A DNA stretch of 18,533 bases from a virus. Lineage: Duplodnaviria > Heunggongvirae > Uroviricota > Caudoviricetes. The DNA is taken from positions 1 to 18,533 of the IMG/VR virus record IMGVR_UViG_2541047722_000018. One strand, given 5' to 3'. The position numbers and the translations under genes are program-made. Position 1 is the first letter of the stretch. Every line of letters starts with the position of its first letter. Positions 9,179 through 18,533 of the stretch are shown here, one piece after another. The notes under the pieces were generated by a model. It had not been told where the DNA came from. It made no database searches and saw only the letters and a program-made list of their open reading frames with translations.

Positions 9179-9331
9179 GTTGTATGAGCTCTGGTGGGAG
9201 CTTACATATCTATGGCACAGAGTAAAGCCTAATCTGACAGTCCGCTCTGTGCTAGGAGCGGACATTGTTGCCATCTATCTGCATAAATCTGTGGGGAGCT
9301 GCTCACTTGTGGGGAATGAGTCCTCAACTGT

Positions 9332-9360
9332 TTGCGTTTATAAACACAATCCTTTAGATT
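9332..9360 (+). promoter_or_regulatory. Candidate sigma70 promoter for the cargo ORF
   Basis: TTGCGT (9332-9337), 17-nt spacer, TAGATT (9355-9360), about 30 nt upstream of the cargo start; each hexamer matches consensus at 4/6 only. Confidence 0.3.
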
Positions 9361-9390
9361 CTCTCCTACTATCTACTAAAATTTTATCTA

Positions 9391-10518
9391 GTGAAAATGC
9401 CCAATAATCATATGTATGCAAGTCTACTGTCTTACAAAAACTTAAAGATGGCACATCAAGGAAGTAACTTACGGTCTATTACTGAGTTTTCTCTCTATTC
9501 AGATAGTCAACCAATTGGGGCGGTTGATGATGATTCAGTTTATTGTTTTCTGAATATGTTACCCAGGATAACCAAACAATCCACCGTTGCATCTTCAATT
9601 ACAGTGCGCACAAAGTGGTATAGTGACTTAAATAATATGATTCTTTCTAGTTCTCAGAGTCATACAAAGGATTATCATGGTGGATGGTATAATGATGAAA
9701 TAGCTGCGCTTTCAAGTTTACTGCTTGGTGTCCGTTTTCATGCTGGGTCAATTACTCGTCACTATGATTACTACACAGGTGATTTCGGAAGGATCCAAGC
9801 GGAGAGTTCTTTTCCTCCCGTTTTAGAGTTTAAACATAACAAACCTATAGTTCCTAATGCTATCAAAGAAATTGATATAACTAACCTTAAAGAGCTTAAC
9901 AATTTACATCTCTTAAGTGAAAAGAATTTCAACCATTTAATTAGAGCAGCCAGAAGCTATCAAAATGCATTATGGATATGCGAGTCATCTCCAAATATGA
10001 GTTGGCTATTGATGGTGTCAGCCCTAGAATGTGCGGCTAATCAATGGGCAAAATCCAATGCGTCTAAAGAAGAAAGATTTAAACATGCCAAGCCTGAATT
10101 ATATGAAAAATTAGATACCAATGAATTTAGACATTTAATCTCTATTATTGCTAATGAGTTTAAAGATTCATTTGGGGCGACAAAGAAGTTTGTGGATTTC
10201 TGCCTGTATTTCCTTCCAGATGAACCTCAAGTGAGGCCAAAAGTAGGAAGAATTGATTGGGGAAAAGAATCGCTATCAACAACTTTTAAAAAAATATATA
10301 ACTACCGTTCTAAGGCATTGCATGGAGGACAACCATTTCCTGAGCCGATGTGTTCCTATCCTGAAGTATGGGATGGGTATATTGCTGAACGAGCGAGAGC
10401 ATGTTCAACCTTAGGTGGAACGTGGTTGAATGAAGATGTGCCAATTAATTTAAATACATTCAACTTTATGACCCATTCCATTTTGAATAAGTGGTGGCAA
10501 TCTTTATTACCAAGTTAA
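9391..10518 (+). CDS. Hypothetical protein, cargo gene at the G/FI variable locus; candidate anti-phage defence protein (possible C-terminal HEPN-like R-x4-H motif), up to 375 aa
   Basis: Single long ORF in an AT-rich island: hand count 20/60 G+C at its 5' end versus 33/60 at the start of FI. Start uncertain (GTG 9391, ATG 9397 or downstream ATGs; no strong SD). No transmembrane segments or P-loop seen. Occupies the P2 Z/fun position. Confidence 0.6.
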   Translation: MKMPNNHMYASLLSYKNLKMAHQGSNLRSITEFSLYSDSQPIGAVDDDSVYCFLNMLPRITKQSTVASSITVRTKWYSDLNNMILSSSQSHTKDYHGGWYNDEIAALSSLLLGVRFHAGSITRHYDYYTGDFGRIQAESSFPPVLEFKHNKPIVPNAIKEIDITNLKELNNLHLLSEKNFNHLIRAARSYQNALWICESSPNMSWLLMVSALECAANQWAKSNASKEERFKHAKPELYEKLDTNEFRHLISIIANEFKDSFGATKKFVDFCLYFLPDEPQVRPKVGRIDWGKESLSTTFKKIYNYRSKALHGGQPFPEPMCSYPEVWDGYIAERARACSTLGGTWLNEDVPINLNTFNFMTHSILNKWWQSLLPS

Positions 10519-10540
10519 CACTGTAAGTATCAGTGTTAAC
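10514..10540. repeat. Perfect 10-bp inverted repeat overlapping the cargo stop codon
   Basis: GTTAACACTG (10514-10523), 7-nt spacer, CAGTGTTAAC (10531-10540). Confidence 0.6.
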
Positions 10541-10609
10541 TGCACCATGTAATTTTATATCTGTACCAGACTGGAGGAAAATGTTCGCTTATCGCTCATT
10601 AGGGTCAAC

Positions 10610-10648
10610 CATACTCAAATCTCTCACATTGCAGGAGATTTGAGTATG
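10610..10648. repeat. Perfect 14-bp inverted repeat with 11-nt spacer
   Basis: CATACTCAAATCTC (10610-10623), spacer tcacattgcag, GAGATTTGAGTATG (10635-10648). Confidence 0.6.
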
Positions 10649-10671
10649 AACACGTCACCGTGGAAGGACTG

Positions 10672-10694
10672 GCGGGCGAATTGCCCGCTTTTTT
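10672..10694 (+). terminator. Rho-independent terminator downstream of the cargo ORF
   Basis: GCGGGC-gaatt-GCCCGC stem-loop followed by TTTTTT on the + strand. Confidence 0.6.
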
Positions 10695-10792
10695 GTATCT
10701 GTTGTTTCATCCACTGACCAGCCAGGTCAAATAGCGTCTCATGCTCTGCACAACAGAAAATAGTTGCACCCATTAACCACGGAGTTAAACGG

Positions 10793-15452: not shown

Positions 15453-15932
15453 ATGATGCTCGCGTTAGGTATGTTTGTTTTTATGCGCCAGACGCTGCCA
15501 CACCAGACCATGCAGCGTGAATCAGATTATCGCTGGCCGTCAAATTCCCGTATCGGCAAACGGGATGCCTTTCAATTTCTCGGTGTGGGTGAGGAAAACA
15601 TCACGCTTGCCGGTGTGCTTTATCCCGAACTGACCGGCGGAAAGCTGACGATGACCACGCTCAGGCTGATGGCAGAGGAAGGCCGGGCGTGGCCGTTGCT
15701 GGATGGCACCGGCATGATTTATGGCATGTATGTCATCAGTAAGGTGAGTGAAACAGGGAGTATTTTCTTTGCAGACGGCACACCCCGGAAAATTGATTTT
15801 ACGCTGTCGCTCACCCGCGTTGATGAATCACTGGCCGCGCTTTATGGCGATATCGGTAAACAGGCGGAATCGCTCATCGGTAAGGCTGGCAGTATAGCGA
15901 CTAAATTCACGGGTATGACGGAGGCGGGATAA
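15453..15932 (+). CDS. U: Tail protein (P2 gpU-like), 159 aa
   Basis: AGGAGG RBS; size and order as P2 U. Confidence 0.85.
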   Translation: MMLALGMFVFMRQTLPHQTMQRESDYRWPSNSRIGKRDAFQFLGVGEENITLAGVLYPELTGGKLTMTTLRLMAEEGRAWPLLDGTGMIYGMYVISKVSETGSIFFADGTPRKIDFTLSLTRVDESLAALYGDIGKQAESLIGKAGSIATKFTGMTEAG

Positions 15933-17095
15933 TGCTGGATGCGCTGACATTTGATGCAGGCAGTACGCTGACGCCGGATTACATGCTGATGCTCGACAGC
16001 AGGGATATTACCGGCAATATCAGCGACCGTCTGATGAGCATGACCCTGACGGATAACCGGGGCTTTGAGGCTGACCAGCTTGATATTGAACTGAACGATG
16101 CCGACGGGCAGGTCGGACTGCCGGTTCGTGGCGCTGTCCTGACGGTGTATATCGGCTGGAAAGGTTTTGCCCTGGTATGCAAAGGGAAATTTACCGTTGA
16201 TGAGGTTGAACACCGGGGCGCACCGGATGTGGTCACCATCCGCGCCCGGAGTGCAGATTTTCGCGGGACGCTCAATTCCCGCCGTGAAGGCTCCTGGCAT
16301 GACACCACGCTCGGTGCGATTGTTGAGGCGATAGCCTCCCGTAACAGGCTGGAAGCCAGTGTCGCGCCGTCACTGGCAGGAATTAAAATCCCGCACATCG
16401 ACCAGTCGCAGGAGTCTGATGCGAAATTCCTGACCCGTCTTGCAGAACGCAACGGCGGTGAGGTGTCGGTAAAAATGGGAAAACTGTTGTTTCTCAAAGC
16501 GGGGCAGGGGGTGACGTCCAGCGGTAAAAAAATCCCGCAGATTACCATCACCCGCAGCGACGGCGACCGTCATCATTTTGCGATTGCTGACCGTGGAGCC
16601 TATACCGGCGTAACGGCAAAGTGGTTACACACCAAAGACCCGAAGCCGCAAAAGCAGAAGGTAAAACTGAAACGCAAAAAGAAAGAGAAACACCTGCGCG
16701 CACTGGAGCACCCGAAAGCGAAACCAGTCACGCAGAAGAAAGCGCCAAAAGTACCGGAAGCGCGCGAAGGTGAATACATGGCCGGTGAGGTTGATAACGT
16801 TTTTGCCCTGACCACGGTATATGCCACGAAAGCACAGGCCATGCGTGCCGCTCAGGCGAAGTGGGATAAGCTGCAACGGGGTGTAGCGGAGTTCTCCATC
16901 AGCCTGGCTACTGGTCGGGCAGATATTTACACGGAAACACCGGTTAAAGTGTCAGGCTTTAAGCGCGTCATAGACGAGCAGGACTGGACAATCACTAAGG
17001 TGACACATTTTCTGAATAATAGCGGCTTCACGACGTCCTTAGAGCTTGAGGTCAGGCTTTCTGATGTGGAGCACGAAACAGAAGATGATGAGTGA
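15932..17095 (+). CDS. D: Tail protein (P2 gpD-like), 387 aa
   Basis: Start overlaps the U stop (TAATG); size and order as P2 D; contains a Lys-rich low-complexity linker. Confidence 0.85.
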   Translation: MLDALTFDAGSTLTPDYMLMLDSRDITGNISDRLMSMTLTDNRGFEADQLDIELNDADGQVGLPVRGAVLTVYIGWKGFALVCKGKFTVDEVEHRGAPDVVTIRARSADFRGTLNSRREGSWHDTTLGAIVEAIASRNRLEASVAPSLAGIKIPHIDQSQESDAKFLTRLAERNGGEVSVKMGKLLFLKAGQGVTSSGKKIPQITITRSDGDRHHFAIADRGAYTGVTAKWLHTKDPKPQKQKVKLKRKKKEKHLRALEHPKAKPVTQKKAPKVPEAREGEYMAGEVDNVFALTTVYATKAQAMRAAQAKWDKLQRGVAEFSISLATGRADIYTETPVKVSGFKRVIDEQDWTITKVTHFLNNSGFTTSLELEVRLSDVEHETEDDE

Positions 17096-17176
17096 TGTAA
17101 TTTATTTATCTGTTTGTTTTATAAGGATAAATTAACTAAAATGGCACCATCAACAAAACCGGAAGAGGTGCTCGCG

Positions 17177-17395
17177 ATGTTTCATTGTCCTTTATGCCAG
17201 CATGCCGCACATGCGCGTACAAGCCGCTATATCACTGACACGACAAAAGAGCGTTATCACCAGTGTCAGAACGTGAATTGCAGCGCCACATTCATCACTT
17301 ATGAGTCGGTACAGCGATACATCGTGAAGCCGGGAGAAGTCCACGCCGTAAGACCGCACCCGTTGCCGTCAGGGCAGCAAATTATGTGGATGTGA
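17177..17395 (+). CDS. ogr: Late-gene transcriptional activator Ogr (zinc-finger, 72 aa)
   Basis: MFHCPLCQHAAHARTSRYITDTTKERYHQCQNVNCSATF... matches my recollection of P2 Ogr, with a C-x2-C...C-x4-C zinc-binding pattern. ATG at 17177 has an AGAGG RBS; the track ORF from 17114 is an over-extension. Confidence 0.9.
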   Translation: MFHCPLCQHAAHARTSRYITDTTKERYHQCQNVNCSATFITYESVQRYIVKPGEVHAVRPHPLPSGQQIMWM

Positions 17396-17405
17396 TCACA
17401 AAAAT

Positions 17406-17430
17406 AGCCCCTCAGTCGAGGGGCTTATTT
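17406..17430. terminator. Stem-loop terminator after ogr (possibly bidirectional)
   Basis: AGCCCCTC-agtc-GAGGGGCT with T-rich tracts on both sides. Confidence 0.55.
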
Positions 17431-17521
17431 ATGGTCGATGTGGACGCTATGTGGACAGTGGTTGACATAAATCCATTTATATCATCAGGTTAGGTGCTTT
17501 TTTGTGACACCATCCCTGTCT
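17431..17521. other. Probable attR region of the prophage (integrase arm-type direct repeats plus core); exact core not determinable from this window
   Basis: Lies between the last phage gene (ogr) and host sequence. ATGTGGAC occurs twice (17438-17445 and 17449-17456) with 11-bp periodicity. Confidence 0.35.
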
Positions 17522-17548
17522 TCCCCCACATGATGTGGGGGTTTTTTT
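17522..17548 (+). terminator. Rho-independent terminator, probably the host cpxP (CpxQ 3'-UTR sRNA) terminator
   Basis: CCCCCAC-atgat-GTGGGGG followed by eight T; located just upstream of fieF, where cpxP sits in E. coli. Confidence 0.6.
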
Positions 17549-17630
17549 TATCCTCAATTTGCCTGCTGCTTAATGCATTGCAGATGATTTGCTTCCGTTA
17601 TACTACCGTCAGTTGATAGCGGGAGTATTT

Positions 17631-18533
17631 ATGAATCAATCTTATGGACGGCTGGTCAGTCGGGCGGCGATTGCTGCGACGGCGATGGCTTCGCTGCTAT
17701 TGCTGATTAAAATTTTTGCATGGTGGTATACCGGGTCGGTGAGTATTCTCGCCGCGCTGGTGGATTCGCTGGTGGATATCGGCGCGTCGTTGACGAATTT
17801 ACTGGTGGTGCGATATTCCCTGCAACCTGCCGACGATAATCACTCGTTTGGTCACGGTAAAGCTGAGTCCCTCGCGGCGCTGGCGCAAAGTATGTTTATC
17901 TCCGGTTCGGCACTATTCCTGTTTTTGACGGGTATTCAACATCTGGTATCTCCAACACCGATGACAGATCCAGGCGTCGGGGTTATCGTGACAATTGTGG
18001 CGCTAATTTGTACGATTATCCTTGTCTCGTTTCAGCGTTGGGTGGTGCGCCGGACGCAAAGCCAGGCGGTGCGGGCTGATATGCTACATTACCAGTCTGA
18101 TGTTATGATGAACGGCGCAATTCTGCTGGCGCTGGGGTTGTCCTGGTACGGCTGGCATCGCGCCGATGCTCTGTTTGCATTGGGGATCGGCATCTATATT
18201 TTATATAGCGCGTTACGCATGGGATATGAGGCGGTACAGTCATTACTGGATCGCGCATTGCCTGATGAGGAACGGCAAGAAATTATTGATATCGTGACTT
18301 CCTGGCCGGGTGTTAGCGGCGCTCACGATCTTCGCACGCGGCAGTCAGGGCCGACCCGCTTTATTCAGATTCATTTGGAAATGGAAGACTCTCTGCCTTT
18401 GGTTCAGGCACATATGGTGGCGGATCAGGTAGAGCAGGCTATTTTACGGCGTTTTCCGGGATCGGATGTGATTATCCATCAGGACCCCTGTTCCGTCGTA
18501 CCCAGGGAGGGTAAACGGTCTATGCTTTCATAA
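17631..18533 (+). CDS. fieF: Cation-diffusion-facilitator family ferrous-iron/zinc efflux transporter FieF (YiiP)
   Basis: [54 protein letters not shown]... matches my recollection of E. coli FieF; GGGAG RBS before the ATG at 17631; the track start at 17589 is an over-extension; the window ends at the stop codon. Confidence 0.9.

Follow-up and report, generated by a model that had tools for sequence, protein, structure and literature searches.

The window, which is the whole stretch of DNA analysed here (18,533 bp), covers the late-gene half of a P2-like prophage, with the host gene fieF on the ogr side. Among 5,426 complete Escherichia coli genomes, N54 and N21 come closest, aligning over 97% of the window at 98.2% identity. 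Starting at the left edge of the window, every late gene as far as ogr is a full-length ORF of the expected size. The penultimate phage gene is D (15932-17095). It is followed by the late-gene activator gene ogr (17177-17395, + strand; Pfam Ogr_Delta, E = 1e-21), which closes the series of phage genes ahead of the attachment site and is annotated as ogrK or ogr in the matching genomes and phages. Thus, the position assigned to ogr in a first-pass annotation of this DNA is borne out. A terminator scan located the ogr intrinsic terminator at 17406-17432 (+ strand), where a stem-loop with an 8-bp stem (17406-17425) is followed by a T-rich tail extending to around 17432. This terminator aligns with the one annotated in the P2 genome (NC_001895). 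Beyond it lie two short direct repeats, an A/T-rich segment, a sequence common to phage and host, and finally fieF (17631-18533, + strand), which is annotated in all matching genomes and whose start codon was checked.

Elsewhere in the window, a low-GC island (9180-10790; 0.34-0.39 compared with about 0.55 in the flanks) lies between the tail-fibre assembly gene and the tail sheath gene. This corresponds to the position of the Z/fun cargo in P2. The island has a 375-aa ORF (9391-10518, + strand), for which no match was found in Pfam, PADLOC or PHROGs. A cargo or defence function, so far uncharacterised, is possible for this ORF.

The attachment region downstream of ogr

The sequence ATGTGGAC occurs twice in the window, at 17438-17445 and 17449-17456 on the + strand, with a distance of 11 bp from start to start. 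The repeats start 6 bp 3′ of the T-rich tail of the ogr terminator. Thus, a pair of repeats with the spacing and the location described in the first-pass annotation is indeed present. The functional unit is better given as TGTGGAC(G/A) at 17439-17446 and 17450-17457. No further TGTGGAC was found on either strand of the window beyond the two repeats.

It was found that positions 17435-17462 (+ strand) align without gaps with the feature annotated as "protein_bind Int, P arm" in P2 (NC_001895, 24293-24320). In this feature, P2 has TGTGGTC and TGTGGAC, which are likewise 11 bp apart and are in exact register with the two repeats of the window. By this ungapped alignment, the P arm of the window is the equivalent of the Int arm-binding region of P2. 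According to Nilsson and co-workers, the arm sites of P2-type phages have the consensus tgTGGaCa and form direct repeats flanking the core on both sides (PMC3448106). The hallmark of a P2-type arm is a set of two or more direct repeats next to the core that match tgTGGaCa, and two such repeats lie here. They are the predicted arm-type site P1, TGTGGACG (17439-17446, + strand), and the predicted arm-type site P2, TGTGGACA (17450-17457, + strand). The two TGTGGAC repeats are most readily interpreted as integrase arm-type binding sites, and the integrase would be expected to bind exactly this DNA. Such a reading had been put forward before any comparison with known phages, and it coincides with both the annotated Int P-arm site of P2 and the published consensus.

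Since attL and the int gene are outside the window, the other end of the prophage was read from relatives. In SF-088, N54, NC22, LP50-1, and M217, the attL region consists of the cpxP stop codon, the 3′ UTR with CpxQ, the core, a P′ arm with TGTGGACActaTGTGGACA, and int. The attR of SF-088 is 100% identical to that of the window. The Int protein of N54, the closest prophage, is 98% identical to WPhi Int and has the Pfam domains Int_N and Phage_integrase. It also carries the Y-x-x-D-x-R pattern, which has been proposed as discriminating the P2 arm type (PMC3448106).

Next to the P arm, positions 17466-17499 (+ strand) align with the "protein_bind IHF" feature of P2 (24324-24357) and are the predicted equivalent of this IHF site. 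The best match to the IHF consensus is TATCATCAGGTTA at 17480-17492, which is preceded by an A/T tract, agrees with WATCAANNNNTTR at 12 of 13 positions, and is in the same register as TTTCAATTTATTG in P2. It is the sole match with one mismatch or fewer in 17396-17560, and there are 15 matches with one mismatch across the whole window. The A+T content of 17458-17505 is 67%. AT-rich DNA had already been pointed out here as a possible IHF site, and the alignment with P2 and the consensus match both favour this prediction. From the terminator through the IHF block, the alignment of the window, P2, WPhi, and vB_YpM_22 has no gaps.

Are the repeats conserved? I compared the P arms of seven WPhi-type sequences (the window, WPhi, NC22, LP50-1, MOD1-EC7003, M217, and vB_YpM_22). 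All seven agree throughout both repeats and 17467-17496, and the substitutions are confined to 17459-17466 and 17497-17499. In other lineages (the M217 group and EC22), the upstream sequence differs and the homology is back at around 17436-17437, that is, at the first repeat. Thus, conservation of the attachment region extends outward as far as the repeats. In the lineage of M217, 4/2-1, and 51008369SK1, ogr and the first repeat are separated by a 642-bp hypothetical gene that has a terminator of its own, and two of the three strains also have an IS150 in this interval.

In each complete related prophage, TGTGGAC-N4-TGTGGAC occurs exactly twice, once at each end and in the same orientation. 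The second pair adjoins int, about 83 bp beyond the core in the attP of WPhi and vB_YpM_22. This P′ arm pair was also found in the attL of SF-088, N54, NC22, LP50-1, and M217. A scan of IMG/VR for the same pattern gave at least 124 occurrences. Among the 124 listed, 50 adjoin the 3′ end of an int homologue or directly follow an ogr homologue, and the Int proteins of these 50 have an identity of only about 50% to WPhi Int. The remaining listed occurrences are consistent with the chance background for a collection of that size.

Core sequence, insertion locus and strand exchange

Beyond 17552, where their match to the window ends, phage genomes run on into their own P′ arm. The vB_YpM_22 genome is 100% identical over 17100-17552, L-413C, fiAA91-ss, R18C, and others also match, and the same junction is seen in the record of WPhi itself. 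Prophage-free E. coli genomes, including K-12-like ones, match from 17506 on. Thus, a 47-bp core, GACACCATCCCTGTCTTCCCCCACATGATGTGGGGGTTTTTTTTATC, lies at 17506-17552 (+ strand) and is common to attP, attB, attL, and attR. To its left, the DNA up to 17505 is phage-only; to its right, the DNA from 17553 on is host-only. The core limits were compared directly in two attP, one attB, and four attL sequences in addition to attR, and the length of 47 bp was read from the sequences themselves. The identity at the WPhi att site is reportedly 47 nt. In the first-pass annotation, the prophage boundary was placed at roughly 17460-17520. This interval does overlap the core and the interval of strand exchange, but it starts about 45 bp too early. 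In the comparison with an uninterrupted cpxP-fieF region and the search for a duplicated core, prophage-free E. coli shares the sequence from 17506, and the same 47-bp core is present at the attL of related lysogens, while the window has the attR copy.

The host DNA (17553-18533, + strand) comprises the upstream region of fieF and fieF itself; from 17553 on, it no longer follows attP and agrees fully with the empty site of E. coli. Each of the six related lysogens whose sequences span the other end has cpxP next to attL. It is known that WPhi and L-413C have one common core, with the site at MG1655 position 4104392 (PMC3448106). For E. coli W, prophage Wphi1 is placed at cpxP-fieF (PMC3032704), and an O157 prophage was reported between cpxP and fieF (PMC7609406). 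The proposed integration at the cpxP-fieF locus is borne out by the attL of related lysogens and by the WPhi literature (PMC3032704, PMC3448106). The WPhi integration site is also among those used by a plasmid-based genome-integration system for E. coli (PMC12765450). A full-length match to the attR of the window is present in 788 of the 5,426 complete E. coli genomes (approximately 14.5%, or one in seven).

In summary, 17435-17552 is very probably the attR (P arm and core) of a WPhi-type P2-like (Peduovirus) prophage between cpxP and fieF, in the CpxQ-yielding 3′ part of the cpxP 3′ UTR. For annotation, the right boundary of the prophage is fixed and the element is a WPhi-type Peduovirus. A cpxP-fieF attR of a P2-family prophage is known biology and adds nothing new to integrase biology.

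A polymorphism within the core was useful for mapping the strand exchange. At 17533, in the loop of the terminator, A is the base in the window, in all phages read, and in most hosts, and C is the base in empty sites of K-12-like and many other E. coli. In M217 and 4/2-1, attL has A beside the phage P′ arm, and attR has C beside host DNA with a K-12-type flank marker. Such a distribution would arise from an exchange left of 17533, or from an overlap that includes 17533, and a position to the right is excluded, as mapped in the single lineage of M217 and 4/2-1. SF-088, NC22, and LP50-1 give no information on the crossover, as A is present in attL as well as in attR. No lysogen with C in attL was found among the best matches. 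The use of C at 17533 as a marker of host versus phage was considered and rejected. Since all 22 exact-core matches among species-representative genomes carry A, C looks like a minority allele.

The identity between phage and host begins exactly at a GACA/TGTC inverted repeat with a 7-bp spacer, CCATCCC (17510-17516). This GACA-N7-TGTC sequence (17506-17520, + strand) is a candidate crossover site. In the RNA fold of native CpxQ, the same positions form stem-loop 1, with a 5-bp stem and a 7-nt loop. By analogy with the integrases that use tRNA anticodon loops, GACA-N7-TGTC might be a pair of core-type sites around a 7-bp overlap.

How might attR function? The repeats P1 and P2 would be bound by the N-terminal domain of a heterobivalent tyrosine integrase. 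IHF at the A/T-rich segment would bend the DNA so that the arm-bound integrase may also reach the core. For excision, the attR complex would pair with attL, which provides the core, the Cox sites, the P′ arm, and int. The strands would then be exchanged inside the 47-bp core, no further right than 17533, with cleavage probably at GACA-N7-TGTC, and this prophage would presumably be competent for excision.

Three other explanations were weighed against this integrase arm reading. The repeat might be a chance duplication with no role in the spacer after the terminator. Taken alone, the repeat is weak evidence and statistically unremarkable, as about 0.28 recurrences of any 8-mer at an 11-bp offset are expected per window, and 23 of 200 shuffles had two or more copies of ATGTGGAC. 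It is strong evidence when set against the previously published consensus, and TGTGGAC-N4-TGTGGAC is expected 1.5e-4 times per window. The weight of the repeats thus comes from this prior knowledge and from conservation, not from the repeat alone. A chance duplication would not explain why the repeat is kept in register with the annotated site of P2 despite an unrelated core, or why the repeats are invariant among the sampled relatives while the neighbouring bases vary. Nor would it explain the second pair in the P′ arm and the enrichment of the pattern beside int across IMG/VR. The conservation data effectively exclude this explanation, which is scarcely credible. It is also highly improbable that the phased repeats bind the excisionase or directionality factor Cox instead of the integrase. 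A phasing of 11 bp suits either class of protein, and a passage in PMC7498355 describes the sites of directionality factors as typically direct repeats one helical turn apart, too. However, no sequence resembling the P2 cox-box consensus TTAAA(G/C)NC(A/C) (PMC3936717) was found with one mismatch or fewer in 17396-17560. This absence fits the layout of P2, whose Cox sites are on the int side of the core, with a Cox footprint beyond the core and adjoining int. Moreover, TGTGGAC is common to P2 and WPhi, which are heteroimmune according to the literature and whose Cox proteins also act at the transcriptional switch of each phage, and it is shared by phages with an Int of only about 50% identity.

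The boundary may be right and the prophage nevertheless a decaying remnant, with arm sites that are intact relics and have no role in excision here. The window shows the late-gene half only, with int, cox, and attL outside, and insertion sequences abound in related prophages at this site, for example, in the M217 and 51008369SK1 lineage. On the other hand, the late genes are full-length up to ogr, and viable phages that have been isolated, such as vB_YpM_22, match the entire attR with 100% identity. A complete early region with int and cox is kept in N54 and SF-088, which are the closest relatives. A remnant is unlikely.

The CpxQ sequence in the core

CpxQ is an Hfq-dependent small RNA of about 60 nt that is cut from the cpxP mRNA by RNase E (PMC9438474, PMC4817254) and covers nearly the whole cpxP 3′ UTR (PMC9438474). 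At the empty site, this UTR measures 67 nt, counted from the stop codon through the T-run, and the core corresponds to its last 44 nt plus 3 bp. Thus, cpxP-CpxQ is intact at attL, and a 5′-truncated copy lies at attR. The attR holds only the 3′ 44 nt (17506-17549) of the 58-60 nt or so of CpxQ, and phage P-arm DNA takes the place of the 5′ portion of about 14 nt. The WPhi-type core thus comprises three parts of this envelope-stress RNA, namely its stem-loop 1, the single strand that joins the two hairpins, and the Hfq-type terminator. The last of these is the cpxP/CpxQ intrinsic terminator, which the terminator scan located at 17523-17549 (+ strand; stem-loop 17523-17541 followed by T8). No statement tying the site of WPhi to CpxQ was found in the literature searched. 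The link between CpxQ and the core is possibly unpublished, and it alone may merit further study.

Is the core sequence present in other bacteria? The exact 47-mer was found in 22 species-representative genomes, in the genera Escherichia, Salmonella, Citrobacter, Enterobacter, Kluyvera, Yokenella, Pluralibacter, Entomohabitans, Erwinia, and Edwardsiella. P2-type prophages, with an Int 82-85% identical to that of WPhi, occupy this sequence in several of the genomes. Citrobacter amalonaticus, an Enterobacter sp., and Entomohabitans have foreign DNA right of the core with different phased repeats, such as two copies of ATGTAGACA 11 bp apart. The arm repeats at the same core are variants in C. amalonaticus (TGTAGAC) and the Enterobacter sp. 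A WPhi-type integrase was not detected in any of these three loci. These observations suggest that other integrase lineages also use the CpxQ core site. In the records of Enterobacter hormaechei B17-3 and B56, the cpxP-fieF region shows full identity to E. coli sequence of the K-12 type over the approximately 250 bp read, including the K-12-type flank marker, apart from A in place of C in the terminator loop. These records may be mislabelled or contaminated.

It is conceivable, though quite unlikely as a whole, that the integrase uses CpxQ stem-loop 1 as an anticodon-loop-like crossover site, that the phage copy is released as a 5′-altered CpxQ-like RNA, and that the 47-mer is a broad hotspot. 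The phage-borne copy of CpxQ would be placed favourably for this, directly 3′ of the ogr terminator, which looks leaky, in attP as well as in attR. If true, a 5′-altered CpxQ-like RNA might alter the regulation of host membrane proteins in lysogens or during lytic growth, and the 47-mer, with at least 22 species in roughly a dozen genera and several different integrating elements, might be a broad insertion hotspot. A scan of 17000-17700 gave no sigma-70-like promoter. Thus, independent transcription of the CpxQ fragment at attR is unsupported.

An Rfam search of the region gave no family above its curated threshold. The best match was Hrs1 (RF02628, "Hfq-regulated sRNA 1"), with 31.8 bits against a threshold of 56.4, at 17483-17549 on the minus strand. 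In an Erwinia genome, Hrs1 exceeds the threshold (64.7 against 56.4 bits) on the strand opposite to CpxQ. The Hrs1 model opens with A7 and then a hairpin, which is a terminator read backwards. Thus, Hrs1 looks like CpxQ modelled in reverse.

Comparison with known attachment systems

WPhi (NC_005056), L-413C, vB_YpM_22, fiAA91-ss, and Wphi1 have an identical core and both repeats at the same cpxP-fieF site. The gene order of the WPhi type, as seen in the relatives, is ogr, P arm, core, P′ arm, and int. Over 17396-17552, the window differs from WPhi at only three positions (17419, 17426-17427, and 17466), with a substitution in the terminator loop, an extra T in the terminator tail of WPhi, and a substitution at 17466.

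P2 shares with the window the ogr terminator, the two arm-type repeats 11 bp apart, and the IHF site in the same register, and then the core follows. In NC_001895, the ogr terminator is followed by the Int P arm (24293-24320), the IHF site (24324-24357), the Int core/attP (24356-24383), the Cox sites (24399-24472), the Int P′ arm (24470-24496), and then int. In contrast, the 27-bp core of P2 has no relation to that of the window, and the insertion site of P2 is MG1655 position 2165238, compared with 4104392 for WPhi. Unrelated cores are to be expected when two phages insert at different chromosomal sites.

The Int protein of lambda is heterobivalent and recognises arm-type and core-type sites, with bending by IHF and with Xis. 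The systems are alike in that the integrase has separate domains for arm and core binding and host IHF shapes the complex (for the P2 group, see PMC3448106). However, lambda differs in the sequence and arrangement of the arm sites. The excision factor of the P2 type is Cox, which is also a transcriptional repressor and has its sites on the int side of the core.

Some phages target RNA genes and rebuild the gene from a 3′ part that they carry, as known for 186 (tRNA-Ile), Fels-2 and SopEPhi (ssrA), and P2-type elements at rybB and cyaR, the last being listed in the E. coli W genome paper (PMC3032704). The WPhi-type phage likewise carries the 3′ part of an RNA gene, namely 44 of the approximately 58 nt of CpxQ with its terminator, and the gene is whole at attL. 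The stem of 5 bp and the loop of 7 nt at the start of the identity block have the geometry of an anticodon stem-loop.
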